A stretch of 64,000 nt of DNA from an uncultured Verrucomicrobiae bacterium (GCA_963804345.1 CAWDPX010000017.1:30673-94672), one strand, 5' to 3'; numbered from the stretch's first letter, positions 17,577-62,131 are shown. Notes: generated by a model not told the origin, from the letters alone. Numbers and translations are program-made.

Positions 17577-17867
17577 GGAGATGTGCCCGTCCTCGGGCGC
17601 GGCAACCGGCTTCATTCAACCCGAATTTCGAAGCTGGCCTGAGCGTAGCGGCGACGCCTCGTCGCAGAAAGGTGCAGGCGACGCCCTCGTCGCCAGTTGC
17701 GGCGGCGATTATGCCGCTGCCGGGAAAAATGCGACGGGGGCGTCGCTATCACCCTGTGGCGACGAGGCGTCGCCGCTACTTTCGGCTGACCGCTTCGGAG
17801 TTCGGGTTCAACTGAACATTTTCCAATCGCCCGCCTCACTTGGCTGCGGCAGGGATGGCCGCACTCC
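17577..17867. repeat. Nested REP-like composite
   Basis: Inner perfect inverted repeat GTAGCGGCGACGCCTCGTCGC (17645) / GCGACGAGGCGTCGCCGCTAC (ends 17779), inside a degenerate outer GGAG..CTCC pair. Confidence 0.8.
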
Positions 17868-17953
17868 GCCAACGCAGAAATGCGAACGTTGGCTGACTGG
17901 GAGCCATAATCAGGCGCTTTTATTCGCAGCCAGCTTTGTCCGCCCCGAATTCG

Positions 17954-18352
17954 TCATTCGTAATCGGCGAGGATTTTCAACCCTTCGGGATCGGCGATGT
18001 CCTGGCCTTGAAGGAGGACAACGTGCCGATATCCGAGGTTCCGCAAGCTGACGAGCCAGTATGTGCCGCGGTCGCGAAACTGGTCACCAATCTGCGATTC
18101 CGTGTAATTCTCAAGAATGACCACGGCGGTTTCGCTTTTGGGCAGTGCCGCGGCCCTCGCCAAAAACTTGTCGTTGGCTTCGCTCGCAGAAGCGTCCGGT
18201 CGGAGCATCCGGCAGGTCTGGTTGTCCAGGGAGTCAATGACCAATGCCGTATTGTCGTAGCTGTGAAACGTCCGCGGCGGTGTCGCGCAGGAGGTCGAGA
18301 TGATGGCCAAAGCCACAAGGGCCAGGGTGGTGCTGATGTTCAATGATTTCAT
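17954..18352 (-). CDS. Small putative lipoprotein
   Basis: Hydrophobic leader ending in a lipobox-like STS-C. Confidence 0.7.
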   Translation of the reverse strand: MKSLNISTTLALVALAIISTSCATPPRTFHSYDNTALVIDSLDNQTCRMLRPDASASEANDKFLARAAALPKSETAVVILENYTESQIGDQFRDRGTYWLVSLRNLGYRHVVLLQGQDIADPEGLKILADYE

Positions 18353-18409
18353 ATGTTCCTGTCGGTAGATGCCTCAGTTTGATTTGCCTCTTTTTACCAC
18401 CGTCTCATG

Positions 18410-18425
18410 CGCAATTGCAATGCCA
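18410..18425 (-). promoter_or_regulatory. Candidate sigma54 (-24/-12) promoter
   Basis: Minus strand TGGCAT-TGCAA-TTGCG, about 60 bp upstream of the lipoprotein start. Confidence 0.55.
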
Positions 18426-18461
18426 TTGGTTTTGGGCCGATGCAATGCGGGCGCAACCAGA

Positions 18462-18778
18462 GGGCGTGTTGCCCAAATCATTTGGAACTGGCGGAGCGCG
18501 GCTGTCCCAGCCGCAGCACGTTCGACAACTACCATAACCCTGGAATTGGGTGCGCTCATCTGGCAATCCTGGCTGCTGCGGGTGGGATACCCGCGCTCCG
18601 TTCCATTTAAGCAACACGCCCCGGACACTCCCACGGTAGCGGCGGCCATCTCTGGCTGCCGTATCGCCCTGCTTCCAACCGGGTGGCCCCATGTAAGCTG
18701 GGCCATGGCGTAGTTTCGGTTTTATGGCCCGGGCGGCAGGGATGCCGCCGGATACGGCAGGCAGGATGCTGCCGCTAC
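18462..18778. repeat. Cluster of REP-like inverted repeats, nested and adjacent
   Basis: GGGCGTGTTG/CAACACGCCC encloses GGAGCGCGG..GCAGCA/TGCTGC..CCGCGCTCC, followed by GTAGCGGC..GCCGCTAC (18636-18778). Confidence 0.8.
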
Positions 18779-18812
18779 AGATCGGTGGCAATGTCCCGGT
18801 GGTTGGGCGTTG

Positions 18813-19679
18813 CTATTTTAACTTCGGGAAAAATTCCGCCGCCGTTTTGCACGTCGCCGCGCTCAACTCTTCGAGCGAACAAGCCTTCACTTGGGCGATG
18901 GTTTCGGAGATTTCCTTCACATAAGCCGGTTCGCAGCGCTTGCCGCGATACGGCACGGGCGCGAGATACGGACAGTCGGTTTCCAGCATGAATTTGTCCA
19001 GTGGCGTGGCGGCGACGATGTCGCGGACGTTTTGTCCGTTCTTGAACGTGACGATGCCGGTAAAACTGACGAGCGAGCCGATATCCAGGACGCGGCGCAT
19101 CCGGTCGGCGCTCTCGCCGAAGCAATGGAACACACCGCGCACGTTGCCGGCAAACGGCTTGAGCAGGGCGAAAGTGTCGTCAAAGGAGTCACGCTGGTGG
19201 ATCACGCAGTTCAGACCGGTTTCGCTGGCGACTTCCAACTGTTGCTGGAAAATTTCAGCCTGCTTCTGTTTGTAACGCGCGTCATCGGCAGCGGTGTCTG
19301 GAGCGCCGGTCTCCGACCCGGCGCGTTTCGCGGAGTCGCCTTTTCTCGCCGGTTCGGAGACCGATCCGCCGGGCAGGCGGTGATAATCCAGGCCGATTTC
19401 ACCGATGGCGACGACTTTTGGATGCTTCACCAGTTTGCGCAGCGGTTCGCGAATATCGTCCGGGGCTTCATGGGCGTTTGACGGATGCCAGCCGACGGCG
19501 GCAAAAACGCACTCGAAACGTTCGGCCAGCTTGATGGCGTGCATGCTGCTTTCGAGATCGGTGCCGATGGAAATGATTCGGGTGATGCCGGCGGCCTGGG
19601 CGCGGGTAATGACTTCTGTCATATCCTTGGCGTAGTCCGGGTAATCCAGATGCGCGTGGGTGTCGTAAAAACTGGCCAT
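18813..19679 (-). CDS. tatD: TatD family DNase with an internal in-frame insertion
   Basis: Motifs DTHAHLD, AVGWHP, AIGEIGLDY, IHQR, VFHCF and LETDCPYLAP. Confidence 0.93.
   Translation of the reverse strand: MASFYDTHAHLDYPDYAKDMTEVITRAQAAGITRIISIGTDLESSMHAIKLAERFECVFAAVGWHPSNAHEAPDDIREPLRKLVKHPKVVAIGEIGLDYHRLPGGSVSEPARKGDSAKRAGSETGAPDTAADDARYKQKQAEIFQQQLEVASETGLNCVIHQRDSFDDTFALLKPFAGNVRGVFHCFGESADRMRRVLDIGSLVSFTGIVTFKNGQNVRDIVAATPLDKFMLETDCPYLAPVPYRGKRCEPAYVKEISETIAQVKACSLEELSAATCKTAAEFFPKLK
19300..19368. repeat. Palindromic element in frame in tatD
   Basis: GGAGCGCCGGTCTCCGACCCGGC ... GCCGGTTCGGAGACCG, translated as GSVSEPARKGDSAKRAGSETGAP. Confidence 0.85.
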
Positions 19680-19709
19680 AATATTCAGGGGGCAGGGAAT
19701 CCTTTTAGA

Positions 19710-19801
19710 AACATCGAACATCCAACATCGAACGCTGAACATCGAATAACACGCCGCTGATCTTCATTCGGAGTTCGATGTTGAATGTTGGATGTTCGAG
19801 G
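19710..19801. repeat. Inverted heptamer tandem-repeat element
   Basis: (AACATCG/AACATCC)n facing (CGATGTT/GGATGTT)n. Confidence 0.85.
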
Positions 19802-19819
19802 TTCTGTCACGGGGAAAGG

Positions 19820-21448: not shown

Positions 21449-21497
21449 GCATCCTTCATTTGACCTTCAACGGACCGGAACGTTGGAATTTTGTGTC

Positions 21498-22283
21498 CTA
21501 GGCACCGCATGTCACCTGGAGGCCATCATACGCGAGCATCACTCCGGATGGCAATTCCGCCTGCGCCCGGTCGTGGTCGTAATCGTGCGTGAGGTGTGTG
21601 AAATAGGTCCGCGCCGCGCCGATGCGCCGCGCCGCCGCCAGCGCTTCGTCGAGGCACATGTGGGTCGGATGCGGCTGGTAACGCAGCGCGTCGAGCACGG
21701 CGACTTCGACGTCCTGGACCTTTTCCAGCGCGTCGACGGGGATTTCCTTGCAGTCGCTGAGATACGCGAGCCGTTTTTTGCCGTTTTGCATGAAGAGATA
21801 GCCATTCGTCATCGTCGAGCCGTGCGGCAGGGGCAGGGGAATGATTTCCAAATCGCCCAGGGTGAATGTTCCGGCTATGACGTGGGGTTCGGGGCGGAAA
21901 TAGCCTTTCGGAATTGTCCGCCCGTCAAACGCATAGATGAAAATACGCCGAAGCGCCGCCATCGTTTCCGCGTTCGCATAAATCGGCAACGCACCTTTGC
22001 GCAAATCGCAAAACCGGCGGCAATCGTCCAGACCCATGATGTGATCGGCATGGGAATGGGTGAAAACAACCGCATCAAGCCAGCGGATGTTTTCGCGCAG
22101 GCACTGGATGCGAAATTCCGGCGTCGTATCCACGACGAACTTGACCTGGTCCGTGGCGATGTAAATGGAAGGCCGGGTGCGATGGTTTTTGGGATTGGCC
22201 AGGAATTCCGGTGGGTATTCCTGGCCGATGAGGGGCACGCCCTGCGACGTGCCGCTGCCGAGAAAAATGAATGAAAACGACAT
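21498..22283 (-). CDS. MBL-fold metallo-hydrolase (PhnP-like)
   Basis: [11 protein letters not shown] and [10 protein letters not shown] (HxHxDH). Confidence 0.9.
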
Positions 22284-22327
22284 GATTAAAATTTTCTTTC
22301 GTTGCTGGCTTCCAGCCTATTCAATTC

Positions 22328-22561
22328 AACCACGGATGCACACGGATAAACATAATGCGTTTTGCGTGGCGACTGCTGGTATGGACTGCGGCGGGAAGCG
22401 AAGCGCCACGCCGCTTTCGGAAACCATCACGCAAAAAGCGGTGCCGCCGCTGTCCACCCTCCGCAGTATTGCTACGGAGGACGGGCACTCCAGTCTTCGC
22501 TGCGCTTCGCCTCGGCAGGCTGCCACGGCAGTCCAAATTTTATCCGTGTCCATCCGTGGTT
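22328..22561. repeat. Multi-layer nested palindromic element between divergent genes
   Basis: Outer AACCACGGATGCACACGGAT / ATCCGTGTCCATCCGTGGTT, middle TGGACTGC..GCAGTCCA, inner CCTCCGCAGTATTGCTACGGAGG. Confidence 0.85.
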
Positions 22562-22589
22562 GTAAGATTTACCGGGACAAAATCTAACC

Positions 22590-24410
22590 ATGTTGACGAC
22601 GCTACGCATCAAAAACCTCGCGCTGGTGCCGGACTTGACGCTCGAACTCCAGCCCGGTTGCAATGTCATCACCGGCGAGACCGGCGCGGGCAAATCCATC
22701 ATCATCGGCGCGCTCAATCTCGTCCTGGGCGAACGCGCCGACCGTTCGCTCATCCGCACCGGGGAGGATAGTTGCTCGGTCGAGGCCGTGTTCGACGTCA
22801 CGGAATTGCACGTCAACCGACGCGGAGCGCCGGCCTCCGGCACGGCTCGACAGGGCGGCGATTTGAAACACGCCGTACCGGAGGCCGGCGCTCCCTCGCA
22901 ACTGGGAAAATATCTGGAGGAAAACGGCCTGGAGCCGTGCGAGGCGAATCAGCTCGTCCTCAAACGCACCTTCACCGCCGGTGGCACGAACCGCCAGTTC
23001 GTCAACGGCTCGGCCACCACCCTGAACGTCCTGGCGGCGATTGGCGAATGGCTCGTGGACATGCACGGCCCGCACGACCACCAGTCGCTTCTGCATCCCG
23101 CGAAGCAACTCGCCATTCTCGATGCGTTCGGCAATTTGGAAAGGGAGCGGGCGGTGTTTGGCGGATTGGTTCAACGCCGCGCCGCGCTCGAAGGCGAAAA
23201 ATCCGCGCTCGTTGTGGATGAGAAAACCTACGCGCAGCAACTGGACCTGCTGCGTTTTCAAGTGAACGAAATTTCCAGCGCCCGGCTTCAGCCCGGCGAA
23301 GATGAAGGGGTTGAGGAAAAATTCCAGCGCGCGAGCAACGCAGCGAAGCTGTTGCAATTAAGCCAGGCCGCGCTGGATGTGCTGGACGGGAACGACCCTT
23401 CATTGCTCACCCAGGCTGGCGCGGTGGGCCGCACGTTGCAGGAATTGCGGCGCGTGGACGCGGGCGCGGACACGCTGGTTGAATTGCACGGGCAGGCGGC
23501 ATCGGCGCTGCGCGAATTGCAGTCCGGGCTTTCGCGTTACGCGGAAAAAGTGGACGTTGACCCCGCGCAACTTCAACGGCTCGAGGAACGGCTTGATCGC
23601 CTCCACTCCCTCAAGCGCAAATACGGCGCGACACTCGCCGAGGTTATCGCGTTCGGCGACGATGCAAAACGCCGGCTCGCGAGCCTCGAACAGCGCGATG
23701 GCGAACTGGCCCGGCTCAATGGTGAATTGCAAAAATTGGATGCGGAACTGTTGCGTGCGGGCAAAGAACTTTCCGCCAAACGGCGCAAAATTATTCCGCA
23801 GCTCGCGAAGGCCGTGGGCAAACAACTCGATGATTTGGGATTCAAGCAAAGCAAATTTGACGTGGCCATCAACTCCGTAGCAGCGGACGTTAGTCCGCTC
23901 CATCTTGTCGAAAGCAATGTTAGAGCCGACTCACGTCGGCTGCTACAGTTCAGCGGTTCGTCACTTTCTTCCACCGGCTTCGATCAGATTGAATTTCAAT
24001 TTGCTCCCAATCCGGGCGAACCCGCCAAGCCGCTCCGCGCCATCGCGTCGTCCGGTGAAATGGCGCGCGTGATGCTGGCGCTCAAAACCGTGCTGGCGGT
24101 GGAAGACGAAATCCCGGTGCTGATTTTTGATGAAGTGGACGCGAACATTGGCGGCGAGACGGCTAATGTGGTCGGTGAAAAGATGAAGCAAATTGCCGTC
24201 CGGCGGCAGGTGTTGTGCATCACGCATCTGCCGCAGGTGGCCGCGGCCGCCGACGCGCATTACGTCGTGACCAAGCAGGTTGAGAATGGCCGGACGATTT
24301 CGGAAATCAGGTTGCTCGACAAAAAATCCCGCGTGACGGAACTGGCCCGAATGCTCGGCGGCCAGAGTGACGCCGCCCGGAAACACGCGGAGGCGTTGCT
24401 AAACGGATAA
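22590..24410 (+). CDS. recN: DNA repair protein RecN with two in-frame insertions
   Basis: Walker A ITGETGAGKS, signature IASSGEMARVMLA, Walker B LIFDEVD, and CITHLPQVAA. Confidence 0.95.
   Translation: MLTTLRIKNLALVPDLTLELQPGCNVITGETGAGKSIIIGALNLVLGERADRSLIRTGEDSCSVEAVFDVTELHVNRRGAPASGTARQGGDLKHAVPEAGAPSQLGKYLEENGLEPCEANQLVLKRTFTAGGTNRQFVNGSATTLNVLAAIGEWLVDMHGPHDHQSLLHPAKQLAILDAFGNLERERAVFGGLVQRRAALEGEKSALVVDEKTYAQQLDLLRFQVNEISSARLQPGEDEGVEEKFQRASNAAKLLQLSQAALDVLDGNDPSLLTQAGAVGRTLQELRRVDAGADTLVELHGQAASALRELQSGLSRYAEKVDVDPAQLQRLEERLDRLHSLKRKYGATLAEVIAFGDDAKRRLASLEQRDGELARLNGELQKLDAELLRAGKELSAKRRKIIPQLAKAVGKQLDDLGFKQSKFDVAINSVAADVSPLHLVESNVRADSRRLLQFSGSSLSSTGFDQIEFQFAPNPGEPAKPLRAIASSGEMARVMLALKTVLAVEDEIPVLIFDEVDANIGGETANVVGEKMKQIAVRRQVLCITHLPQVAAAADAHYVVTKQVENGRTISEIRLLDKKSRVTELARMLGGQSDAARKHAEALLNG
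22824..22894. repeat. Palindromic element in frame in recN (same family as the tatD insert)
   Basis: GGAGCGCCGGCCTCCGGCACGGC ... GCCGTACCGGAGGCCGGCGCTCC, translated as GAPASGTARQGGDLKHAVPEAGAP. Confidence 0.9.
23877..23946. repeat. GTAG-type REP-like doublet in frame in recN
   Basis: GTAGCAGCGGACGTTAGTCCGCTC ... GAGCCGACTCACGTCGGCTGCTAC, translated as VAADVSPLHLVESNVRADSRRLL. Confidence 0.9.
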
Positions 24411-24640
24411 TGCTTGGTAAACATTGAAACGCATCCAATTTCTCACGTCGCCGCCGTTTTTTACAGAAAACAAGCTGTCCTGCCGGTTTTCAGAAGTTAA
24501 AAACAGTAAAAATCCACGAAAATATGGATAATTGGATATGTGGCCCTTGTCACCAGAACTGGTGACTGGCAGGGGACCGGGCATGAGGTATGATTCCATT
24601 GTTGTTGCCGTTGTAATTTAGTTCTCAATTCTGTTTTAAG

Positions 24641-24674
24641 AGGCCGGACCTGTTGTCCGGCCTTTCTTTTTTTT
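24641..24674 (+). terminator. Rho-independent terminator
   Basis: AGGCCGGAC-CTGTT-GTCCGGCCT followed by a long T tract. Confidence 0.8.
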
Positions 24675-25081: not shown

Positions 25082-25360
25082 GGGTTGAGGGCTGAGAGTT
25101 GGGAGATTCGGAAAGTTGAGTGTTGGGGCGCATTCAGGGGCACCGCCCCCGAATGCAACCGAATGGGAGCGCGGCTTGTCCCCAGCCGCAGCACTGGCAA
25201 ATGCAAGAGCCGGTTGGAAAGTTTTTTTATGAACCGGTCTCCGCGAATGGAGCTGCTGCGAGTTGGGACAACTCGCGCTCCGGCGAGCGTACCGATACGG
25301 TGTTCCTTTGCACCCGCGGCAACGCCGGCTTGACTTTCGGTCCGCAGCTTTCGACCCTCA
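25082..25360. repeat. Nested REP-like composite downstream of tRNA-Glu
   Basis: GGAGCGCGGCTTGTCCCCAGCCGCAGCA / TGCTGCGAGTTGGGACAACTCGCGCTCC (same family as 18493-18599), with degenerate flanking arms. Confidence 0.75.
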
Positions 25361-34292: not shown

Positions 34293-34611
34293 TGTTCGTT
34301 GAATCGTTAGACCGTTAAACGGTGCTTCCTCGACGTTTTCACAGGAATGAGTGATTACGTCCGCCTTCACCTTTAATCCTCTCCCCCAGGAGAGGAAATC
34401 GTTTTCGTTTGTTTCTGGTTTTGCTGATGAGCGTCCGGCCAATCCCGTCGTATGAATTTTCAAAGGCACGGCGAACGATTCACCCTCTCCTGGGAGAGCC
34501 GGGGCGAGGGTGGATGTCACCTTCTGGAAATATCGAAGAATCTAAACGGTTGGATCGTCAACCCCGGGGGGTGAATCCGATTCAACAATTTAATGATTCA
34601 CGTTTCAACCG
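34293..34611. repeat. Composite short-repeat and palindrome element between convergent genes
   Basis: CGTTGAAT/CGTTAGAC/CGTTAAAC units on the left and TTCAACAA/TTTAATGA-like units on the right flank CCTCTCCCCCAGGAGAGG and CTCTCCTGGGAGAG hairpins. Confidence 0.65.
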
Positions 34612-36552: not shown

Positions 36553-36636
36553 GGTAGATTAAACTCGGTGTTGGTAAAAAGTTGCGACATCAATTCGGCT
36601 TCCGTGATGTTTTTAAGGGACACGCCGCTCGTGGGG

Positions 36637-36796
36637 AATGACGAATGACGAAATCCGAATGACGAAGGAATGCCCGAATAACCAATGCCCAACCTGTGCG
36701 TCGCCGGCACATCCTTCGCCGGTGCGGATGACATCGCACTGCTTTTGTTTCGGGTTTCGTCATTCATTCGTCATTAGTCATTAGGGCTTCGTCATT
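36637..36796. repeat. Inverted heptamer tandem-repeat element (AATGACG family)
   Basis: (AATGACG)n ... (TCGTCAT/GTCATTA)n, with a related copy at 42141-42276. Confidence 0.85.
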
Positions 36797-42070: not shown

Positions 42071-42140
42071 CGCGAAAAGCGAGAATATGGAATTTGGGTT
42101 CTTCAATGTTGCCAGCGGACTCAACGCCGCGGCCGGATAG

Positions 42141-42276
42141 CAATGACAAATGACTAAATCCGAATGACAAAAGAAATCCCAATGCCCCAATTACGAAACC
42201 AATCACCGTGCCTTCGCGCTGATTGGGTATTTGAGCTTCGTCATTCTTTAGTCATTAGGATTTCGTCATTCGTCAT
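42141..42276. repeat. Inverted heptamer tandem-repeat element (AATGAC family)
   Basis: AATGACAAATGACTAAATCCGAATGAC ... TTCGTCATT..GTCATT..TTCGTCATTCGTCATT. Confidence 0.85.
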
Positions 42277-42284
42277 TTCCCCGC

Positions 42285-43190: not shown

Positions 43191-43265
43191 TCCAGAGTAG
43201 CTCAATGGTAGAGCGCGCGGCTGTTAACCGTGATGTTGTAGGTTCGAGCCCTACCTCTGGAGCCA
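43191..43265 (+). tRNA. tRNA-Asn(GTT)
   Basis: 75 nt with acceptor stem TCCAGAG/CTCTGGA, anticodon loop CTGTTAA, GGTTCGAGCC and encoded CCA. Confidence 0.96.
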
Positions 43266-43468
43266 TTTAATTAAGTCGTTGGCGGACAACGACAGCTTCC
43301 AGGAAAAGGGCTTCAAAATGTCCAAAATGGCCCAACTGTCAGTAAAAGTGTCAGAAGAAATTTGCCGGAGTGACGTGCCGGTCACGTTCCCGATGATTTC
43401 TTTCACGTGTCTGCCAGATGCCGTTAACCGGGCAATGTGCGTTTCTGTTATCCTCATGAAAGGCGCAC

Positions 43469-44555
43469 ATGAAAGAGCGGTTTTATTTGTTCAAACGCAA
43501 CGGCATCTACTATGTGGAGGATGGCGCGACGGGAAGGCAACAAAGCCTTAAAACCAAAGACGGCCCGGAGGCACGACGGATTTTGCACGCCAGGAACGAG
43601 GCGGTTCGATCTCCCACACTGAATGTCGCGCTGGCCAAGGTTTATTTATCGGCCCATGACCCAAAAATGCTCGAACGCACCTGGCAGGACGTGATGAATG
43701 AATTTTGCAGTCGTGGCAAACAACAGACACAAGAAGACCGTCGTCGTGTCGCCATGCGCAGGCCGCAAAATCTGCTGCGGAATTTGAAACTGGTTGAGAC
43801 GACGTCGGATGACGTGATGGGCGTGCTTAAAGCGGGTGGCGCGATGACCAACGCGTTCGTGCGCTGTCTGCATAATCTCGCATTGGGTTTGGGGTGGTTG
43901 CCGTGGCCGATTTTGCCATCCAAATTGTGGCCGGTCGTTGAGACCAAAAAGAAACGGGGCATCACCTGGAAAGAACACCAGCGAATCATTGCCGCCGAGA
44001 AAAATGTCGAGCGGCGACAGTATTACGAATTTCTCTGGGAGACGGGCGCAGCGCAAACCGATGCCGCGCAGATTTGCGCGGAGCAAATTGACTGGCAGCG
44101 GCACATCCTTTCCTATCAACGGCAAAAAAACCGGCGAGTGGGCGCACCTGCAAATTGGCAGGCCGCTTGAAGACCTGCTGCGCCAATTGCCTTCAAATGG
44201 CGTCCTGTTTGTGAAGATCGCTAAGACCAATAATTCCGCCCGCTCCGCTGAATTTCGCCGTCGCTGCCGGTTGCTGAAATTGAACGGTGTTTCGCTGCAC
44301 AGTTACCGCTATGCGTGGGCAGAGCGGGCACGTGCTTGCGGTTATCCCGAACGCTGGGCGCAAAATGCCTTGGGTCACAATTCTCGCGCGGTGCATCAGG
44401 CGTATGCGAAGGCAGGCGTTGCGATTTGCCCGCCGCTGGATGATTACGAGCGGATAGCCAAGAAAGTGCAAGGCGCGTTCACACCAGTGGAAGAAGCCGG
44501 AAGCCGGGCAAAGCCAAGTGAATCGTCGGGATTATTGTTGCACGCAACAAATTGA
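43469..44555 (+). pseudogene. Tyrosine recombinase/integrase, frameshifted at an A7 tract (44124-44130)
   Basis: ORF 43469-44170 (LWETGA) joins ORF 43938-44555 (SLHSYRY, ALGHNSRAVHQAY). Removing one A gives ..YQRQKTGEWA.. Confidence 0.82.
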
Positions 44556-44564
44556 ACAGCGAGG

Positions 44565-44852
44565 TCAGGCAACCGCTTGGCGTTCCTTTTCCCGCAGCTT
44601 TTTATCCTGCCGATATTTGATCAGGATGCGGGTGGCCTTGTCGAGCCAGGTGCGGTCGTGTGACAATTCCATGATCTCGTCAGTGCAGAAATACTTGTGG
44701 CCGTTGGGAGCAGGGCGGTCCAATGGTTTGAGCAGGCTTGAACTGATGAGCACCGGAATCTCATACGGCAAAAATCCCAAGACCTCCGCCGTCTGATTCA
44801 TGTCGAGGCGCGCCGGCAGACGTGGCAGCATAAGCATCGATTTTTCGTTCAT
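44565..44852 (-). CDS. Small HTH DNA-binding protein (excisionase-like)
   Basis: ARLDMNQTAEVLGF resembles a MerR/Xis-like HTH, and it converges on the integrase. Confidence 0.7.
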   Translation of the reverse strand: MNEKSMLMLPRLPARLDMNQTAEVLGFLPYEIPVLISSSLLKPLDRPAPNGHKYFCTDEIMELSHDRTWLDKATRILIKYRQDKKLREKERQAVA

Positions 44853-44896
44853 ACGTGAACCGCCGCTCCTTGCTCACAGTGGGTTGATTTCGTGAT

Positions 44897-45274
44897 TCAT
44901 ACGTTTTCCTTGGCAAAAGTGATGGCGACGGAGGCAACATGGGTTTTCAACATGGCTGCGAAACGCCGGTTCGCCCGCTGGACAAATTTCAGCTCATGTT
45001 TCTGGATGGCCCGGTCTATGGATTTGAGTCCGCTGCCCAGCACTGTGACCTCGGCCACGGCAAAATGGATCAACAACTGTTGTGGTGAAGTGTGGGGTTT
45101 TTTTTCCAGCGCAGGATTGGCGCACAGCTTGGAATACAGAAATTGTGCATAAGGCAGTTGAAAGCTTTCCTCATCGTCCGCAATCGCGTTCAACGTTGCC
45201 ACGGTGGCGTCGATGCCGTAACAGGGATTGTCACGCGAGCTAGACGGCGATTCGGTGAGTGGATTGGTGTTCAT
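44897..45274 (-). CDS. Hypothetical protein coupled to the relaxase
   Basis: 125-aa ORF overlapping the relaxase 3' end. Confidence 0.65.
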   Translation of the reverse strand: MNTNPLTESPSSSRDNPCYGIDATVATLNAIADDEESFQLPYAQFLYSKLCANPALEKKPHTSPQQLLIHFAVAEVTVLGSGLKSIDRAIQKHELKFVQRANRRFAAMLKTHVASVAITFAKENV

Positions 45275-47963
45275 AGTGCGGTTTATGGATTTGTTTGGGG
45301 CCTATGCGGGATGAAATGGATTGCGTGATGCGGTGGCGGAAATGTTTCAGGAAGCGATGGCCGCGCTGCAAAACACGCTGGATGAATTTTCGGCGGTGAA
45401 CGCGCGCGACAACTTCCACAGCCGCCAGTCGCGCACTGGACCGGGTGACGTGCGAGCGCAACAACTCGGCGTCATCGGTAAAAACGCGGCAGGTGTCGCG
45501 CCCGCGCGAGATGCTGACGTAAAATTGTTCCTGATGGATGGCGGGCAACGAACGCGATGAAGCCACGACCAATACTTCATCCACGGTCTTGCCTTGGGCG
45601 ACGTGTGAAGTGACGGCGTAACCGTGAGTGAAGGTGCGGTAAGTTTCAGGAATCATCCGACCATCGGTCAGCAAAACGGAATCACCTTGAATTGCTTTGA
45701 CCTCGACCAACTCACCGTTGATAAACTTTTTACGCCAGTTGGCCTGTAATAACAGTTTGTCACCGGCAGCAACTTTCAACCTCCGTTTCTCCCCCACATC
45801 AAAGCAGGCGCGGCCTGCACCCAATGGGAAAACATCTTCCGAACCATCGGCGCGTTGAACCTTGAGCGAATCATTGGCGATGGCGACTACCGCGACGGAT
45901 TCATTTTTGTCAAAACCATGCGCCGCCAGGTGAAACCGAAGCGCCATGCCGGGACGGTATTGCCGCGCATTCCGTTTCTGCGCTTCCGTCCATGACAGCG
46001 AATCGAAAACTTGGAATTCCTTTTCTTCACCGGCCAGCCGACCGGATGTTTTCAACGCGACACGAACTTTCTCCGTCACCCCCTCAATTTCATCCCATGT
46101 CGGCGCGACCAGCAGCACGGATTTGTTTTGCTCCAATGCTTTCAGATATGACTTCGCGGCCTCACCGTGCACACCGTGCAGATTGTCGCCCGAAAGCTCT
46201 GTTACTGCGCCCATGCGTTCCAGTTGTGCGAACGCTTCCACCGTCCGTTTCTGCGCGGCCAATTCGACGGCCTTGCGATATTCGGCGCGGCGTTGCCGGC
46301 GAATGCGGGTCAATTGACCGGATTGAAACTTGGAATGTTTTTCCAAAATCCGGAGCGCATCGCCACGGGCAACCGATGAGTGCTGGCCGGTGTCGCCGCA
46401 GAGCAGAACGCGGCAATCTTTCGCCAAATCAAAGAGCTGTTTCATGTCGTCAATCCCCACCGCCCCGGCCTCATCGAGAACGACCAACTGCCGTTTGGAC
46501 AGCCTGGGCTTTGACTGCAACAAATATTGCAACGTTTCCGCCTCGAAGCCTTCGTTGCGGAGAACATCCGTTGCCGCCGCCGTCGGTGTGCAGAATAGCG
46601 GTTCGACACGAGCCTCATTGCAGGCAGCGACCAGTTCATGCAAGGTCGTGGTTTTACCCGTGCCCGCCAGCCCACGGATACCGGTGATGCGGTCACCGGT
46701 GCGCAGCACATGCAGGATGGCGCGCTGTTGATCTTCACCGAGCCAGCCGGCGGGTTGGAAACTGGCGTGCAATGGAGTGACCGAATCGCATTCCGTGTTG
46801 ACCGTCTGAATCAAATCCAGTTCCGTGGCCAAAATTTCCCTGGTCGAAAATCCGTATTCTGTCCTGACCAAGTTCGGCGATTGCTTTACCGCAGCTTTCA
46901 ACGCCGGCAAATCCACTTCGCCCGGACGCTGCGATAGCGCCACTCCCAGCAATTCATGCTCCGGCACCACGGACTTGCGCTCAAATACATGGCTGACGGC
47001 GTGGGTCAGAACTTGGTTTTCATCCGCCGGTATCAACGCGGAAGGCCGGCCGGTTGCTGACGCGCAAATACTCTGTAACACTTGCCGTTCATCCGGCGAC
47101 AACTGAGCCAGTTGCTTTTCGCGCACTTCTGCCGTCGAGATGCCTTTGATCTTTTTCGCCCGGCTCTGATGCACGGCATGGGCAATTTCATTGTTGGTCA
47201 GTTTCCGCCCCAGCTTTTGTTCCATTTCCTGGACCACCTTGTCCCGTTGTTGCGACCGTTTTGAAAATCGTTGCAACACCTCATCGCTCACGCCTTCGAT
47301 TTCAAAGCCGTGCTTCGCCGGCCTGATTTGATAGCCGATTTCCTGAACCCGTCTCGCCAGTTCATTCCGATAAACCGCCGTGGCGTATCGAATCGCGTCA
47401 TACATCGGACGGGCTTGAAGCGCCTTCCAGCATTGTTCCTTTTCATCAAACGTGGCGTTGAACACTGTGCAATGCGTGTGCAAAAGCGGGTCGAGTTCAC
47501 GGGAACTGTCATGCAGAAACGCGGCGGCGACCAGGTTCCCGGTCATGCGGTCGCGTTGGTTGCCTGCCTTGCGCACCCGCGTTGCCGCGAAGGTTTCCAG
47601 TTCGCGGAACGCCATGCGCTCCGCTTCCTCATGTGCCGCCACCAGTCGTTCATCATTCAATGTCACTGCCAGCACCGAGACCGATTTTGGGGCCGAGCAG
47701 GTGAAATCATAAAAGACCCGCCGCTTGTCCTCCTTCTGTTGCCGTTGCGTCAGGCGTTCGCTGGTTTCAGGATTTAGGTTTTCACACAGCGCGTGAAATT
47801 GTTCGCACGTGACCTGCCCACTCAAAACCAATCGTTCCGCGCCCGTGCCAATCCACTGGCCGGGACGGATTTCGCCAGCGGCGTAGTAATCGTTCTGCGC
47901 CAGATGCTCGTCGAAATAGCTCTCGGCATCGGCTAGATTTTTATGCGCGACGGCTGTGAACAT
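45240..47963 (-). CDS. MobF (TrwC/TraI-like) relaxase-helicase
   Basis: N-terminal SYF..DYY, YDFTCSAPKSVS, the HUH motif HDSSRELDPLLHTH, Walker A GLAGTGKT, LDEAG, HGYAVTSHVAQGKTVD and YVSISRGR. Confidence 0.93.
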   Translation of the reverse strand: MFTAVAHKNLADAESYFDEHLAQNDYYAAGEIRPGQWIGTGAERLVLSGQVTCEQFHALCENLNPETSERLTQRQQKEDKRRVFYDFTCSAPKSVSVLAVTLNDERLVAAHEEAERMAFRELETFAATRVRKAGNQRDRMTGNLVAAAFLHDSSRELDPLLHTHCTVFNATFDEKEQCWKALQARPMYDAIRYATAVYRNELARRVQEIGYQIRPAKHGFEIEGVSDEVLQRFSKRSQQRDKVVQEMEQKLGRKLTNNEIAHAVHQSRAKKIKGISTAEVREKQLAQLSPDERQVLQSICASATGRPSALIPADENQVLTHAVSHVFERKSVVPEHELLGVALSQRPGEVDLPALKAAVKQSPNLVRTEYGFSTREILATELDLIQTVNTECDSVTPLHASFQPAGWLGEDQQRAILHVLRTGDRITGIRGLAGTGKTTTLHELVAACNEARVEPLFCTPTAAATDVLRNEGFEAETLQYLLQSKPRLSKRQLVVLDEAGAVGIDDMKQLFDLAKDCRVLLCGDTGQHSSVARGDALRILEKHSKFQSGQLTRIRRQRRAEYRKAVELAAQKRTVEAFAQLERMGAVTELSGDNLHGVHGEAAKSYLKALEQNKSVLLVAPTWDEIEGVTEKVRVALKTSGRLAGEEKEFQVFDSLSWTEAQKRNARQYRPGMALRFHLAAHGFDKNESVAVVAIANDSLKVQRADGSEDVFPLGAGRACFDVGEKRRLKVAAGDKLLLQANWRKKFINGELVEVKAIQGDSVLLTDGRMIPETYRTFTHGYAVTSHVAQGKTVDEVLVVASSRSLPAIHQEQFYVSISRGRDTCRVFTDDAELLRSHVTRSSARLAAVEVVARVHRRKFIQRVLQRGHRFLKHFRHRITQSISSRIGPKQIHKPHYEHQSTHRIAV

Positions 47964-48486
47964 AAACCGCAGTATTATTTGTTTCCCAAAAAGCTTTGTT
48001 CGCTTTCCGATCACCTTTTAATCCCATTTATTGCTGTCATTCTGACGGAAGCCGTGACAGCGGCGGTGTATCACCAGCACCGCTTGCATTGTTGCTCTAC
48101 AATGGCTCTCCTTTCTCATCTGCAATTGGAGAGTCTACCGGAAAAGGCCGTCGGTTTTGTGTCAATTAGACACAAAATGAAGTGTCCGTTTTGCGGATAA
48201 ACCCCTGGGAAACCCTGACTAATGGCAATTTTTAGGTGATGCATTCTTACCATAAAGGCAATGACCATGACCTTGACCGAGAAACATGAGACGGTTTTCC
48301 CGCTGGACTGGTGCCGCCGGGAAGGGTTGGAGCGCCACGATCCGTTGAATGTATTTCGACCTGGGCAAGGATGGCTTGTTGATCCGCCCGGTGAAAGCAC
48401 CCGGAAAACGGGCCGTGGCTGGAAAGTTTGCGAACTTCGGCCTTGTCGGTTGCTTCAAAGTCCTGATTGCGGTATGTTTTGCTTCA

Positions 48487-48678
48487 GTGAAACCGATGTC
48501 TTTCAATGAAGTGAAACAGCAGGAAGCGCAAAGCCGCATGACTGCGGCGCGCAAGGCCCGCCGCAGTCCGCAGGCGGCAGCCGTGCTTCAGCAACGGGCT
48601 TCACTGGTGGGCAATGGTGCGAAATGGCGAATCACCAATTTCAAGCAGGTCGCCCGCGCCATGTCCCAATGGGCGTAA
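48487..48678 (+). CDS. Small basic protein, candidate antitoxin
   Basis: About 63 aa, overlapping the downstream nucleotidyltransferase-like gene. Confidence 0.5.
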   Translation: MKPMSFNEVKQQEAQSRMTAARKARRSPQAAAVLQQRASLVGNGAKWRITNFKQVARAMSQWA

Positions 48679-49433
48679 CTGTGGGCTTTTCCCTCCACCA
48701 GTTTTCAGAAGTTTTCAAAATACGCGACGGGGCAGGACAGCCTTATCTTCTCATCGGCGGTCAGGCGGTCAATTATTGGGCTGAACGGTATCTGTCCACC
48801 GAACCACAACTTAAACCATTACAGCCATTCACCAGCGAAGACATTGACTTCAAAGGCAGCTCCGATGATGTCCAACGCATTGCCCGGCAATTGGAACTGG
48901 CTCCGGGTTATCCGTCCAAAGTGGAAATGACCGCGCTGGCGGGCACCATTCCCTTCCAAATCGGCGGTTTGAAATCCAACATTGAAGTGGTCCGGCGGAT
49001 TCCTGGAGTTTCAGGTTCCGTGGACGCCCTGGCAGTTCAGGCGGAGTGGAATGGGAAAATCATCCGCGTCCTTGATCCCATTTCACTGCTGGCGTGCAAA
49101 CTGGAACTGGTCGCCAGTGTGCCGCAGGAAAAAAGGCGCGACGTGGCACATTTGAAAATATTACTGCCTTGTGTCCGCGCGTTTCTGAATGAATTCCTGC
49201 AACAGGTCGAACGTGGCCAGATTCCGGCAAGGCACTGGCTGGGTGCGGCCAATCAGGTGCTGAAATTGACGACCAGCAACCGCGCACGGAAAATCGCCGG
49301 CAAACATCAAATCAACTGGCCGGAAATTCTCCCGTTGACCGCCATCGCCAAAAGCCAGCACGAGAAAATCAGACGGTTTCAGGAACAGCAGTTGGAACAG
49401 GGCTACAAAAAATCAAAGGGTATTTCCACCTGA
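48669..49433 (+). CDS. Pol-beta superfamily nucleotidyltransferase-like protein
   Basis: LLIGGQAV ... TSEDIDF (GG + DxD) and a later K..KRRDVAHL motif. Confidence 0.75.
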   Translation: MGVTVGFSLHQFSEVFKIRDGAGQPYLLIGGQAVNYWAERYLSTEPQLKPLQPFTSEDIDFKGSSDDVQRIARQLELAPGYPSKVEMTALAGTIPFQIGGLKSNIEVVRRIPGVSGSVDALAVQAEWNGKIIRVLDPISLLACKLELVASVPQEKRRDVAHLKILLPCVRAFLNEFLQQVERGQIPARHWLGAANQVLKLTTSNRARKIAGKHQINWPEILPLTAIAKSQHEKIRRFQEQQLEQGYKKSKGIST

Positions 49434-50356
49434 TGTAATGTCCGGCGCTTTGACTGACCGGATTTCCTCCAGGTATTCGGAAACCGGCCAGACAAGGCAC
49501 CTCTCAATTGAACCTACACGGCAACGCACTCAGCATCCGTTTCTAAAACCCCGCCACATTTCACAGCCGTTCCATTCCGCTCCGGTTTCAGAAACGGATG
49601 TTCAGTGCGTCCACTACAATCATTATCGAGTTCCATTTGAAACGCATTACGGAGGCATCCACCAATTCATTTTGGCGTCCGGTTGGCAGTCCGCGTAGCG
49701 TCTGGCGAATCATCCGGGCAGTTGTCGGGAAACATCTCACTGAACACCGATAAATGTCCGCGTAATTGCTGGCGCAACTGTCCGGAAGTGTCTGGGCAAC
49801 GTCTGGTCAATTGCCGTTGAAATCCGCGAAGTAGCTCGCGCAACATCCGCGTAACAAGTCGCGTGACAGCCAGACAACACAACTGAAATAGTCCATGCAA
49901 CAAACGCGTACTGCCCAAGAACAATCCATGTCTACGGACGAATACCGGTCGCAGGCATTAAACGGACGTTGACTCTCCAAATCCCCGGATAATCCAAAAC
50001 CGTGTTCAGTCCATATTCTCGTCCGCGAATTGTCCACGTCACAGACAGTCCGCATCAAATTTGCTACCGGTTTTGTCGCCTGTATCGGTCATCACTGGTA
50101 TTTTGATTCTTGCCCATGGCGCAGTTGCGCTGACAAGGGCGCGCGCGAATCCTGATTTGATGGTATGTCGCCGGTTGTCGCATCAAGGTCGAATTCCCCC
50201 GTTGCCCTTGAATTTCCACCTTGACCCGCCGCCCGGCTCCGGGGACTGGCTCTTAGGATTCGCGCGCTGGACAACTGTTCACAGGAAGAAGAATTAAATT
50301 ACCCATGGAAGAGGATTGCCATAATCGCCTTCCCACATGTCACGTCGAGCTGTGGC

Positions 50357-55168: not shown

Positions 55169-55177
55169 GTCCAGCCT

Positions 55178-57181: not shown

Positions 57182-57199
57182 GGATTGGATGGATTTGCT

Positions 57200-58204: not shown

Positions 58205-58205
58205 G

Positions 58206-59267
58206 TCAGATGTTCATCATTGCTCCAGTTTGGCGGGCGTCATATCCCGGCAATTCGCTGATCAGGCGGCGGTGGTTGCGGCTGCGCAATAATCGGACGA
58301 GAGCCTGGATGCGCGGGTCGTGTTGGAACGCGGTGGAAAAACACAAATCCAAAGCTTCCTTCCGCACCGGCAGAAAATTTAATCCGGCTTCGTCGGCACT
58401 GAAGCGCACGCAAACGCCCGCCTCCGCCCAGCCCGCGCGCACGGCCTCGGCCACCGCCGCGTGACCTTTCACCTCGCGCCCGGCGAAATGCCGTTTGCCG
58501 AGCAGTTCATCCAAGCATTCGCGCGCCGCCGAACCGGATTCGCGCGCCGCCCAGCGCAACGGACGCCGAGCCACGGATTCCGCTGAACGCGAACGATCGT
58601 CCGCCGCCAGTGCGATACCGGATTCCCATTTTGCAACGCGGAGCAGTCGGCAATCGCCGCCGAACTGCTCCCGCACGGTCTCAGCATTGCGTTCCGGCGA
58701 TTCATCTGTGGAATAATGCAGTCCCGCGACATGAACCAGCCGTTGCCGCAACAATTCCAACGCGCTGCGTCCACCACGAGGAAACACAAGCAATCGGAAA
58801 CCGGACGCCCGCGCGTATTCCGCTGCCAGCAAACCCGCCGCCGGATCACAGCACGCCATCACCAGCGTTGTTTCCGCCACCGCCGGACCACTCTCGCGCA
58901 ACACGCCGTTTTGCCAGACGCCGTCATGCGGCGTAGGATTCAAGGTCACCGCCTCGACCGGATACAGCCGCCGCCGTGAATTCACGCTGGCTTCCCAATA
59001 GCGGCACGTTTCGGCGCGCGGCAGCCACGCCCAGTCAGGCCCGGTCAAAACGGGTGTTGCCGGACGGCCAAACAATTCTTCGACCGAACACTCGAACACC
59101 GCCGCCAGCGCCAAGGCCGTCGCAACCGACGGTGATAGACGTTCGCCCTCGATGGCGCTGACCGCCGCGCGCGAGATGCCGGCGCGTTCAGCCAGTTCCG
59201 CTTGCGACCATTCGCGCGCCAACCGCCGTGCCAGCACCGGGTTGGACGATATGATTCTGTCGTTCAT
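58206..59267 (-). CDS. XRE-HTH + PBP-like (molybdate-binding type) regulator
   Basis: WSQAELAERAGISRAAVSAIE, CCDPA, HVAGLH, RESGSAAR, HAAVAEAV..G.AEAGV and LPGYD. Confidence 0.85.
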   Translation of the reverse strand: MNDRIISSNPVLARRLAREWSQAELAERAGISRAAVSAIEGERLSPSVATALALAAVFECSVEELFGRPATPVLTGPDWAWLPRAETCRYWEASVNSRRRLYPVEAVTLNPTPHDGVWQNGVLRESGPAVAETTLVMACCDPAAGLLAAEYARASGFRLLVFPRGGRSALELLRQRLVHVAGLHYSTDESPERNAETVREQFGGDCRLLRVAKWESGIALAADDRSRSAESVARRPLRWAARESGSAARECLDELLGKRHFAGREVKGHAAVAEAVRAGWAEAGVCVRFSADEAGLNFLPVRKEALDLCFSTAFQHDPRIQALVRLLRSRNHRRLISELPGYDARQTGAMMNI

Positions 59268-59323
59268 GGTTATTATCGTGTCACTCCGGGGCAAATAAAA
59301 ATGCCGCCGGACTAAAGTGCTTT

Positions 59324-59340
59324 TGCAACTGCGATGCCAA
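59324..59340 (-). promoter_or_regulatory. Sigma54 (-24/-12) promoter
   Basis: Minus strand TTGGCAT-CGCAG-TTGCA matches TGGCAY-N5-TTGCW, about 55 bp upstream of the regulator ATG. Confidence 0.75.
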
Positions 59341-59507
59341 GCAGTTGAACTTTCTAACGAAGCGGACAAACCCCTTGTGAAACAAAGTGTTTATCGTGAT
59401 TGGAATGTTTCCGGCGAAAAAATCCCGCCGGAAAAATCCTACCTGAATGAAGTTTTTAACCCGAAAGCTACGCCGATGTGACTTTGTTGGCGGCGCGCAA
59501 ATCTGCT

Positions 59508-60302
59508 TCACCTCACCGCAAACGCATGCCACACGGCCAGGCCGGCGAGCAGCAATGCGGGCGCGGCGACAAGGCAGATGCGCCAGAGCCGTTGCTGCGC
59601 GCCGGGGGTGGTGGTGAATCCCAAAACTTCCGCACCGGTGGCGATGCCGTTGGCGAGGTGATACACCGCCGCAATCATGCCGAGCAGGTAAAATTCCGCG
59701 AAGAGCAGGTTGCCCGGATGACCGGCGGGCAATCCGTGCCAGAACTGCCAGATGGCCTGCGACGCCGAGTTGAAGGCGTTGCGCGGATCGAACCGCCCGC
59801 CGAACCAGCGGTGCAGTGTGCCGATGTGGAAAGCGATGAACACCAGTAGAATCAAGGCGCTGACGCGTTGCAACCACTGGCGCAGGTCGCTGCCATGATG
59901 ATGCTTCTCCACGCCGAATTTTAATTTTTCGCGCCCCAGCGTCCGCAGGCCAAGCGCGACATGAATCGTCAAGGGAATGAAAATCAAACCAATTTCCAGT
60001 ACTGGCAACGCCGCGCCCAGGCCGTGAATGCGGTTCACCGCCGATTGAAACCGCGCCGGCCACAGACCGAGCAGGTTGACGGCGAGGTGCAACACCAGAA
60101 ATCCGCCAAGCACAAAGCCGCTCCAAGCGAGGTAATGGCGCGGGCAGGTGCGACCGCTGCAACCGCATTCCTGCACGGCCTCCTCACCGAATTTCAAGTC
60201 AAGGATGGCACGCGCGTCAGGCAGCGCGGCACGGCGACCATGACCGCCGCAGCCACAGGAACTTTTTCGGCAGCCGGATTTGGGAGCAGTTTCAACGCAC
60301 AT
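59508..60302 (-). CDS. SdhC-like cytochrome b558 subunit with a Cys-rich N terminus (orphan)
   Basis: FLVLHLAVN, PLTIHVALG, LQRVSA..FIAFHI and YHLANG give four heme-ligand-like His in five TM segments. Confidence 0.75.
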   Translation of the reverse strand: MCVETAPKSGCRKSSCGCGGHGRRAALPDARAILDLKFGEEAVQECGCSGRTCPRHYLAWSGFVLGGFLVLHLAVNLLGLWPARFQSAVNRIHGLGAALPVLEIGLIFIPLTIHVALGLRTLGREKLKFGVEKHHHGSDLRQWLQRVSALILLVFIAFHIGTLHRWFGGRFDPRNAFNSASQAIWQFWHGLPAGHPGNLLFAEFYLLGMIAAVYHLANGIATGAEVLGFTTTPGAQQRLWRICLVAAPALLLAGLAVWHAFAVR

Positions 60303-60324
60303 GGGAAATCAGCCGGCAGTCATT

Positions 60325-60849
60325 TCATTGACGCGTGGTCGCCTTGCCGTGCTGCGCTTGAACGACCGTCGCGCCGAGTTGCAGCGAGGTCGCGTCCCAC
60401 TTCCAGTCGCCACCACCAGGGCCGCCGGTGAGCGCAAGCATTTCGCCGAGCAATTTGGGCTGGGCCGGCGGTGTAATTTCAAATTTCCCGGCGAATTCCG
60501 CCGCGTTGCCGCCAATTTCCCGGTCTATCACCACGGAAAAATCCAGCGCCAGTTGCGTGGAGGTGTCGCAGCAACTGCCGTGAATCCGCGCGAGTTCGTA
60601 CAGGCAGACGCTTGTGGCGTCGCGGCCTGTGACATCAAACAAAACCGCAAATGCGTCGCTGGCCGGCGCAATTCCGGCGAGCTTCGGCAACGCGGCTGCG
60701 TCGAGTTTCCAGCTCTGCGTTTCGGAATCGCTCAACGTCTTAACGTGCCGCGCGATGAGGCCGTCGCGCCCGCTGAGCTTGAGCGGCTGGATTTTTTCGT
60801 AGCGGACGGTTTTGCCGTCGGCGGTTTTTTTATAGATCAGGAAGGCCAT
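60325..60849 (-). CDS. Hypothetical protein coupled to nifV
   Basis: 174-aa ORF overlapping the nifV 3' end. Confidence 0.7.
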
Positions 60850-61969
60850 GGTTTTTCTTTAAATTGGCAACCAAGGTTTTGAGTTCGTCGTCGGTGACGG
60901 GAACTTTGCGGCTGATGGCGATGAGCCGGATTTCTTCCAGCAACTCCAGTTGTAATTCCGCCGGCAGGTCCAGGTTCAACTTTTGCAGTTTGTGACGGAG
61001 CAGACCGCCGCCCGAGTGGCGGCCCAGTTGCATGGCGGTGGGAGTATGGCCGACTTCCCCGGCGGCAAACGGCTCGTAGGTTTCGTGGTCAGCCAGCAGC
61101 CCGCTGCAATGAATGCCCGATTCGTGTCGAAACACCGATTCGCCCACCACCGGCTTGTCCGGATCGAGCGGCCGGCCGGAGGCGCGCGCCACCAATTCAC
61201 TCAACCCGACGAGCTGGCGCGTATCCACGCCGCAATCCTGCTTCAAGGTCAGCCGCGTCGCCATCACCACTTCTTCGAGCGAGGCGTTGCCGGCGCGTTC
61301 GCCCAGGCCGTTGACCGTGACACTCGCAGCATTCGCGCCGGCAGCGAGCGCGGCAATGGTGTTCGCCGTCGCCATGCCCAGGTCGTTGTGCCCGTGAAAT
61401 TCCAGGGTCAACTCCGGCACGGCGGCGCGCAAGGTGCCGATGAGATCGCAGGTCTGCAACGGGTTCAAAATGCCAACTGTGTCCGCGATGCGCAGGCGCG
61501 CCAGCCCGGCCTCCCGTGCGGCAAGCGCGAATTCGATCAAAAAGACGCGGTCGGCGCGCGAGGCATCCTGCGCGCCGACGGAAAGGAAGCGGAATGCGTC
61601 GCGAAACTCGGCGGCCAGTTCCGTCATCGTCCGGAAGACCCAATCGTGATCCTTCTTCCAGGCGCGCAGATGAATTTGCGACACCGGCAGTGAAAAATGC
61701 GCTCCATGGACACGGCAACGGGCGGCGGCCAGCAGGTCCAGGCGTTTCGCCCGGCACCAGGTGGTCAGACGCAAGGTCAAGCCCAGGTCGGATACGGTAT
61801 TGATGTCATCCACCTCGCTTCGCCCCATCGCCGGGATGCCGATTTCGATTTCCGGCACACCGGCGCGAGCGAGCGCGATGGCGATGTTTTTTTTCTCCGT
61901 CCGCGAGAAGGCCACTCCGGCGGCCTGTTCGCCGTCGCGCAGCGTGGTGTCAATAAGATGCGGCGTCAT
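60830..61969 (-). CDS. nifV: Homocitrate synthase
   Basis: [43 protein letters not shown] and FRHESGIH, in nif context. Confidence 0.93.
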
Positions 61970-61981
61970 GGTCGTTTTTTA

Positions 61982-62131
61982 ACCGCGGATGGACACGAAT
62001 AAACCGGTAGGGCGCGTCACTCCGTGCGCGCCGCTGCACGACATTCCACAAACGGCGCGCACGGAGTAACGCGCCCTACCAACAGAATTCAGCCTGGTTT
62101 TCATCCGTGTGAATCCGTGTCTATCCATGGT
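61982..62131. repeat. Nested palindromic element inside the nif cluster
   Basis: Inner GGTAGGGCGCGTCACTCCGTGCGCGCCG / CGGCGCGCACGGAGTAACGCGCCCTACC (62006-62080) within the outer CGGATGGACACG / ATCCGTGT family also seen at 22328. Confidence 0.88.

Follow-up and report, generated by a model that had tools for sequence, protein, structure and literature searches.

Systems in which repetitive extragenic palindromic (REP) sequences, paired as inverted doublets (REPINs), accompany REP-associated tyrosine transposases (RAYTs) are well described (PMC3116915, PMC2817692, PMC8266576), and for RAYT groups PMC5581495 gives a mean of 1.3-1.8 copies per replicon per group. Section 7 of PMC3733652 reports GTAG/CGTC-tagged REP dimers within long palindromes in Anabaena variabilis, Thermomicrobium roseum and Halothiobacillus neapolitanus, and according to PMC1525189 REPs serve as targets of insertion sequences (ISs). 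A limited literature search found no paper on nested REPINs or miniature transposable elements with inverted repeats (MITEs) in Verrucomicrobia. Here we analyse a stretch of 64,000 nucleotides, hereafter the window, from an uncultured Verrucomicrobiae bacterium (GCA_963804345.1, CAWDPX010000017.1:30673-94672, or G000:C17:30673-94672 in our own numbering of genomes and contigs), in which several intergenic spacers between 17577 and 62131 hold inverted repeats of one family inside those of another, in the manner of Russian dolls. An earlier note on this DNA had taken them for a community of non-autonomous elements that preferentially target each other's loops and are mobilised in trans. Our analyses support a more modest reading as the probable one: the dolls are composites assembled from ordinary kinds of non-autonomous mobile DNA, which this genome holds in unusual abundance, and their nesting is a by-product of crowding, of a bias towards host loops and of amplification as units. 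Nested hairpins of this kind are already known, while the members involved, the extent of layering and the unit amplification are new.

The genome (Limisphaerales, 4.64 Mb in 29 contigs, 58% G+C) was searched for repeat families de novo. Regions flagged by 14-mers served only to pick 873 kb for an all-against-all BLAST comparison, whose alignment end-points were clustered into element instances and the instances linked into components; repeat flagging by 12-mers, and later by 14-mers only, gave too much noise for families to be defined and was dropped. The 308 resulting components include GTAG/GGAG-headed palindromes, MITEs and foldbacks armed with tandem repeats, and the families are multi-copy, not single-copy. 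GTAG/GGAG-headed REP doublets make up F2, F3, F10, F11, F12, F13, F16, F18, F25, F27, F38 and others; the printed representatives of F3, F10, F11, F12, F13, F16, F18, F25, F27 and F38 start with GTAG, GGTAG or GGAG, and degenerate heads are permitted for REPs in section 5 of PMC3733652. Inverted REP pairs form a single hairpin unit at 62006-62080, 18492-18600 and other sites, family lengths are 53-115 bp, and copies of F11, F12, F27 and F3 all occur in the window. Two families are MITEs, F49 (187 bp, with a 5-bp target duplication) and F22 (157-159 bp, with IS5-like ends), both small, bounded by terminal inverted repeats and lacking coding capacity. Hairpins with tandem-repeat arms comprise F0 (7-mers), F7 (8-mers) and F6/F40 (10-mers), the last hereafter FB10.

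Six composites had been named in the earlier note. BLAST against the genome resolved all of them into multi-copy pieces with sharp copy-number steps, and four (17577, 18462, 22328 and 61982) are indeed built of different multi-copy families, whereas those at 25082 and 34293 are not. At 17577-17867 the MITE F49 lies inside a GGAG-headed, REPIN-like palindrome of 6-10 copies. The left half of this host, delimited by the copy-number profile (17577-17619), ends in the target TTCAA (17615-17619), and the right half (17807-17867) opens with a second TTCAA (17807-17811). F49 itself (17620-17806, 187 bp, terminal inverted repeat CCCGAAYTCCGAAG) has its own GTAG-headed inner palindrome, with arms at 17645-17693 and 17731-17779. 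Three paralogous host palindromes without the MITE carry a single TTCAA, and in the rebuilt empty site the junction falls in the terminal loop. Direct repeats of 5 bp are present at seven of the nine F49 loci listed, five of them perfect (TTCAA, TTTAA, CTGAG) and two matching at four of five positions; the hosts of F49 belong to four different families, and about 17 F49-type arm pairs, 165-176 bp apart, were found genome-wide.

The doll at 18461-18621 has the architecture that had been proposed for it, as one copy of a unit family. The outer ends (GGGCGTGTTGCCCAAAT) are those of F22, and its core is the REPIN F18 (18492-18600), whose arms (GGAGCGCGG...GCAGCA; 18492-18518 and 18574-18600) are 89% complementary. 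All 15 pairs of the F22 outer-arm motif hold the same REPIN over a span of 157-159 bp, apart from one overlapping pair of 369 bp, and the absence of any empty F22 recalls two of the three species in section 7 of PMC3733652, for which no empty outer palindrome is reported. The sole long-range pair of F22-type ends (C12:132607-133531) encloses an open reading frame (ORF) of 268 amino acids (aa) that Pfam assigns to DUF772/DDE_Tnp_1_6. Since F22 ends hold a constant REPIN and also flank a DDE ORF, the doll is a MITE derived from IS5 that has a REPIN as its core and is copied whole. A separate REPIN, F27 (18632-18792, head GTAGCGGCGG), adjoins the composite, and its family also stands on both sides of the Y1_Tnp gene at C7:130250; F22 and the adjacent F27 are both missing from the orthologous spacer in the related genomes G001 and G003. 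Elsewhere in the genome, a tandem array at C4:739150-740224 has at least six units with a period of about 212 bp, each beginning with an F22-type end and the left F18 REP.

The three layers described at 22328-22561, in the spacer upstream of recN, were recovered in full. The outermost consists of the FB10 arms, of which the left (22327-22350) is made of tandem 10-bp units CACGGATNNA and the right (22539-22562) lies 28 nt upstream of the recN start; the two are 96% complementary. Between them lies F8, a palindromic element of 156 bp (22382-22537, GGACTGCGG...CGCAGTCC) found inside 7 of 24 FB10 copies, and within F8 a REP-like hairpin of about 32 bp (22453-22484) is an insertion relative to the copy at C23:48881. 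The layers differ in copy number, with about 39 matches for 22382-22467 versus 12-23 for the outer arms. Homology of the innermost layer to four other loci covers 22443-22491, and this segment is missing in at least six other F8 copies, whose alignments measure 125-137 bp on the subject versus 154-158 bp in the window. In six relatives (loci L012, L013, L014, L017, L019 and L027) the spacer between the MBL-fold gene and recN is about 37 bp long, versus 281 bp in the window, and the whole 22327-22562 element is missing. Two other loci (L011 and L015) keep orthologous FB10 arms around an unrelated interior, so that cargo can change while arms stay; because the interior in the window matches other FB10+F8 composites, another FB10 copy may have taken part in recombination or conversion across the arms. 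Some contigs from four public soil and peat metagenome runs either skip from 22284, 22294 or 22265 to 22581 or replace 22349/22352-22538, and were given little weight because their sides are short (21-34 nt) and their likeness is 88%.

FB10 recurs with different cargo at 61982-62131, as had been claimed for this outer family: where the recN spacer has F8, a degenerate left arm (61982-62005) and a right arm (62100-62131), both traced by BLAST against the genome, here enclose the REPIN F25 (62006-62080, 75 bp, head GGTAGGGCGCG, arms 96% complementary). Matches number about 46 for 62006-62080 versus 10-30 around it, and 7 of the 16 genome copies of F25 lie inside FB10; the orthologous site in G003 is a gap of 12 bp. 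Genuine paired copies of FB10 number 24 genome-wide, with lengths of 129-325 bp, and nine 'plain' ones (129-158 bp) have a common homologous interior of about 75 bp. Arm pairs 1-2 kb apart were rejected as single elements, for they enclose ordinary genes (rRNA adenine dimethylase, NUDIX) and represent two separate elements. FB10-type arm ends (ATCCGTGT..ATCCGTGG followed by TTAAA), which occur in the window at 22539-22562 and 61982-62005, are mostly unpaired and in many cases stand 5-30 nt from an ATG; by a crude proximity test with loose motif matching, 94 of 155 lie upstream of an ORF of at least 100 aa and no more than 80 nt from its start, versus 751 of 2000 intergenic positions taken at random.

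The remaining two examples did not survive as composites. Within 25082-25360 the REPIN alone is repeated, the outer part having 1-4 copies, and the sole enclosing inverted repeat is of 12 nt and extends beyond the end of the interval. This REPIN is a solo F18 (25166-25281) that follows a tRNA-Glu gene; the claim that one inner family has different outer arms at 18493 and about 25167 therefore holds for the inner family, F18 at both sites, but not for the arms, which the copy at 25166 lacks. At 34293-34611 a single 160-bp family, F20 (34354-34514), formed by two inverted F1 hairpins (CCCTCTCC...GGAGAGGG), stands in single-copy DNA with unique flanks and no enclosing inverted repeat.

That 18462 and 34293 behave as single families, together with the proximity of FB10 arm ends to ORF starts, would fit the view that each composite is one structured unit, for example a multi-hairpin regulatory RNA or a terminator, and no nest of mobile elements. 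We regard this as highly improbable, given that inner and outer parts are found apart elsewhere, that target duplications are present, that only two tRNAs reach the Rfam threshold in the window, and that the orthologous spacers of close relatives lack the whole structures. On this last point the spacers of relatives, predicted to be empty, were short or empty at the recN spacer, at the 61982 site and at the F22/F27 site.

Nor do the composites correspond to the bacterial interspersed mosaic elements (BIMEs) of Escherichia coli as PMC3116915 and PMC2817692 present them. Both are intergenic mosaics of REPs and other short motifs, but BIMEs are REPs alternating side by side, whereas at 17577, 22328 and 61982 one element encloses another: instead of side-by-side REPs with conserved linkers, these three sites have empty hosts and separate inner copies elsewhere. 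The enclosure of REP dimers by a longer, unrelated palindrome is shared with the cases in section 7 of PMC3733652, where nesting occupies one paragraph and is stated as not investigated; the present genome adds up to three layers, several outer families, one of them with an IS5-like relative, empty sites among both paralogs and orthologs, and a quantified loop bias. With the insertions in PMC1525189 our composites have in common that mobile elements land within palindromic repeats, although the incoming elements described there are full ISs with transposase genes, and here both host and guest are non-coding miniatures.

Proven nesting at individual sites leaves the question of its frequency, for which the 45-bp flanks of 713 deduplicated palindromic instances were joined and paralogous 'empty sites' spanning the junction were sought, the null being random positions in crude intergenic DNA (genes taken as a greedy set of longest ORFs). 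This joined-flank test replaced the detection of insertions by collinear split alignments, which gave only 80 clusters, 22 with at least two supports, because short outer arms fail the E-value cut. At least two empty-site paralogs were found for 54 of 713 elements versus 592 of 2996 random positions, and by a laxer criterion both flanks were repeated at least three times in 67 of 713 versus 391 of 2996; with outer arms shorter than about 25 bp under-detected, observed nesting is at or below the null, and the preferential nesting that had been postulated finds no support. Moreover, 20 of the 54 positives are F3 instances, mostly tandem-array artefacts. Families differ widely, from F49 (4 of 6 scored instances), F25 (7/16) and F19 (7/26), which are often nested, to F2 (1/95), F10 (1/37), F11 (1/34), F12 (1/30), F7 (0/28) and F32 (0/19). 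A nested versus solo count for F8 was not used, as the query spanned half the element and the flank window missed one arm.

Chance alone has to be considered. Under pure crowding, insertion would be random in scarce intergenic DNA, and selection would tolerate insertions in repeats or in loops that keep the stem, which would serve as safe havens. Since 13-20% of intergenic positions drawn at random are in multi-copy sequence already, no targeting is required for an observed nesting rate of 8-9%, and the same families stand in frame inside recN, tatD and a GH106 ORF, so that insertion is not confined to repeats. As a sufficient account this is nevertheless doubtful, if conceivable: it leaves unexplained both the recurrence of the same composite and the excess of insertions in loops within hosts, as insertion into the stem of a non-coding repeat should be equally harmless.

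The loop excess was measured on 45 merged events with at least two paralogous empty sites, of which 11 on the tandem arrays at C15:5525-16955 were dropped, leaving 34. Rebuilt empty sites were folded with DNA parameters, and a junction was scored as apical when it fell in a terminal hairpin loop with 8 or more closing pairs; the expectation assumes insertions uniform along the part of the host covered by paralogs. The junction was in the host terminal loop in 18 of 34 events versus 6.27 expected, a value reached in 1 of 100,000 simulations, and after look-alikes (same insert family and similar host) were collapsed, in 11 of 24 versus 4.41 expected (P=0.0017). There is thus a loop bias, of moderate size. 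Targeting of loops, as the earlier note had put it, is partly upheld, as an excess in host loops among proven events but not as any overall enrichment of nesting.

A stronger version, in which the families actively seek out each other's loops by preference and spread mainly by nesting, could draw on this bias, on the very frequent nesting of F49, F19 and F25, and on the four host families of F49. It is unlikely in our judgement, because genome-wide nesting does not exceed random expectation, most REPIN families are almost never nested, and the high rates go back to the copying of a few composites as units. Among nested F25 copies, 6 of 7 have another nested copy as nearest neighbour, with up to 97% identity, and mean identity is 0.80 between nested copies versus 0.71 between nested and solo ones. 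FB10+F25 and F22 composites also occur in the related genomes G001, G006, G011 and G014, and the REPIN F25 in nine related genomes within the order, three of which belong to other families. Most dolls are thus passed on whole, as units, and the high nesting of some families reflects the copying of composites and not many separate hits.

As to the source of mobility, it had been stated that no RAYT lies in the window, and all 13 Y1_Tnp matches in the genome are indeed elsewhere; Pfam confirms the domain in three ORFs. At eight of the 13 loci, inverted copies of one REP family stand on either side of the gene, seven families being involved (F33 twice, F27, F12, F16, F11, F37 and F72/186), and a ninth locus, which lies at a contig start, is flanked by F3 on one side; a REP of the GGAGCGCGG type adjoins the Y1 gene that lies at the beginning of contig C7. 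Of the genome's two DUF559 matches, the stronger is the gene at C2:211327, and F1 hairpins flank it. The prediction that mobilising genes would be found flanked by the families was in this way borne out for the eight Y1 loci and for DUF559 with F1, but not for F18 and F25, the inner families it had named. The flanked Y1 genes, the IS5-like DDE ORF and the DUF559 gene together support the idea of a community of non-autonomous elements moved in trans.

The arrangement resembles the REPIN-RAYT systems of Pseudomonas fluorescens SBW25 as described in PMC3116915 and PMC2817692, in that inverted REP doublets reach high copy number outside genes, each family stands on both sides of a Y1 gene present once or twice per genome, and related families are common to relatives. 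By analogy, the REPINs would be moved by Y1 (RAYT-type) transposases encoded elsewhere between copies of their own REPs. At least seven REP families have Y1 genes here, versus three RAYTs in SBW25 (PMC3116915), which is many for one genome given the mean of 1.3-1.8 per replicon cited above. Higher-order forms differ as well: in the text of PMC3116915 they are tandem clusters, and the word 'nested' does not occur, whereas here REPINs also lie within MITEs and foldbacks. Tandem arrays of 63-bp F3 REPIN units with a period of 64 are present at C15:5525-9633 and resemble the REPIN clusters described beside Pseudomonas RAYT genes. Two Y1_Tnp ORFs of about 320 aa (C3:130589-131566 and C4:92609-93550) are bounded by a 20-nt terminal inverted repeat and not by REPs, which is a different, IS-like use of the Y1 enzyme family. 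A 2.6-kb repeat on contigs C1, C27 and C29, suspected of being an IS and sharing words with the F49 ends and with the 22443-22491 layer, proved to be a GH106 paralogue.

The reading of the dolls as composites whose nesting is a by-product would then comprise four steps. One element would occasionally land inside another, in the unpaired apex of its host beyond chance; the apex loop of an extruded hairpin might be favoured as exposed, single-stranded and harmless. Whatever machinery recognises the outer ends of the composite would afterwards copy it as a new unit, with MITEs presumably moved by DDE transposases, so that the same doll recurs many times, also in related genomes. Finally, cargo could be exchanged with the arms kept, through recombination or conversion across the conserved arms. 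Occasional landing, loop bias and unit copying would together yield nesting without any general habit of mutual targeting.

Several points weigh against this scheme or some part of it, beginning with the nesting counts at or below the null. Among the 34 loop-test events, 15 have the junction in internal or multi-loops and one is not enclosed at all, and the test has its weak points in predicted folds, crude longest-ORF calls and non-independent events. No autonomous element sharing the F49 ends and no autonomous partner for FB10 was found in the genome, and a head-motif scan round all 13 Y1 loci gave no flanked Y1 gene for F18, F25, F8 or F19, which are the most-nested families. The head of F18 is that of F12 and the head of F25 that of F3, from which we infer that Y1 genes linked to F12 and F3 may mobilise them. 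The cargo-swap mechanism is drawn from one locus, and the metagenome contigs that skip the recN element may stem from other FB10 copies or loci, or from other organisms, and are weak evidence at best. The mobility of the elements is itself read from the sequence. A bolder extension, in which hairpin apexes are a preferred landing site for both Y1-moved REPINs and DDE-moved MITEs, composites become replicating units, and modular capture makes of the arms portable handles that exchange cargo between loci, is offered only tentatively.

Palindromic families also occur inside genes. Two REPINs lie in frame within recN (22590-24410), F11 at 22823-22894 on the plus strand (about residues 75-102), a family that flanks the Y1_Tnp gene at C4:53462, and F10 at 23866-23959 on the plus strand (about residues 426-457); with both, RecN has 606 aa versus about 549 aa at the related loci L027 and L047. 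At the second site inserts differ in length and sequence among relatives, so that it looks like a hot spot. REPIN families are also found inside tatD (19299-19363), where about 60 nt are missing in G001, and inside the GH106 ORF at 14705-17575 (17182-17256), where G008 has 15 nt versus 73 nt in the window. Such in-frame palindromes resemble the palindromic elements of Rickettsia as treated in PMC3733652, a likeness that concerns in-gene inserts and not nesting; section 15 of the same paper describes many intragenic REPs, often in DNA-repair genes, in the verrucomicrobium Opitutus terrae.

The gene content of the window is otherwise ordinary (GH106 hydrolase, TatD, RecN, TPR proteins, ribosomal protein S2, EF-Ts and others), and the closest public recN loci come from bog, peat and soil, in metagenome-assembled genomes of Limisphaerales and other Verrucomicrobiota. 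F0/F7 hairpins with arms of tandem 7- or 8-bp units stand at 19690-19805, 36635-36796 and 42131-42278. F0 is the most abundant repeat component genome-wide (688 alignment nodes) and is present in many relatives; no gene associated with the F0/F7 hairpins was found, and we know of no description of the class from the phylum Verrucomicrobia. A tRNA-Asn gene (43191-43265) is followed by a stretch of lower G+C (0.53-0.56) that contains a TrwC relaxase/helicase gene (45240-48014), and the region 43191-50000 probably represents a mobilisable element that has integrated. At the start of the window, and running off it, is a giant open frame (2-13408) of more than 4460 aa with a highly repetitive core at about 4200-10980.

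This genome constitutes a natural test bed in which several REPIN-RAYT populations, MITEs and foldbacks coexist within a small compass and in which the empty sites of sister genomes allow composites to be dated. If the loop bias stems from the chemistry of single-strand transposition, it would explain the mosaics of palindromic repeats seen in many bacteria, and their presence in tRNA-like loops; otherwise the case demonstrates how crowding, along with the copying of a few composites, can give rise to striking dolls.

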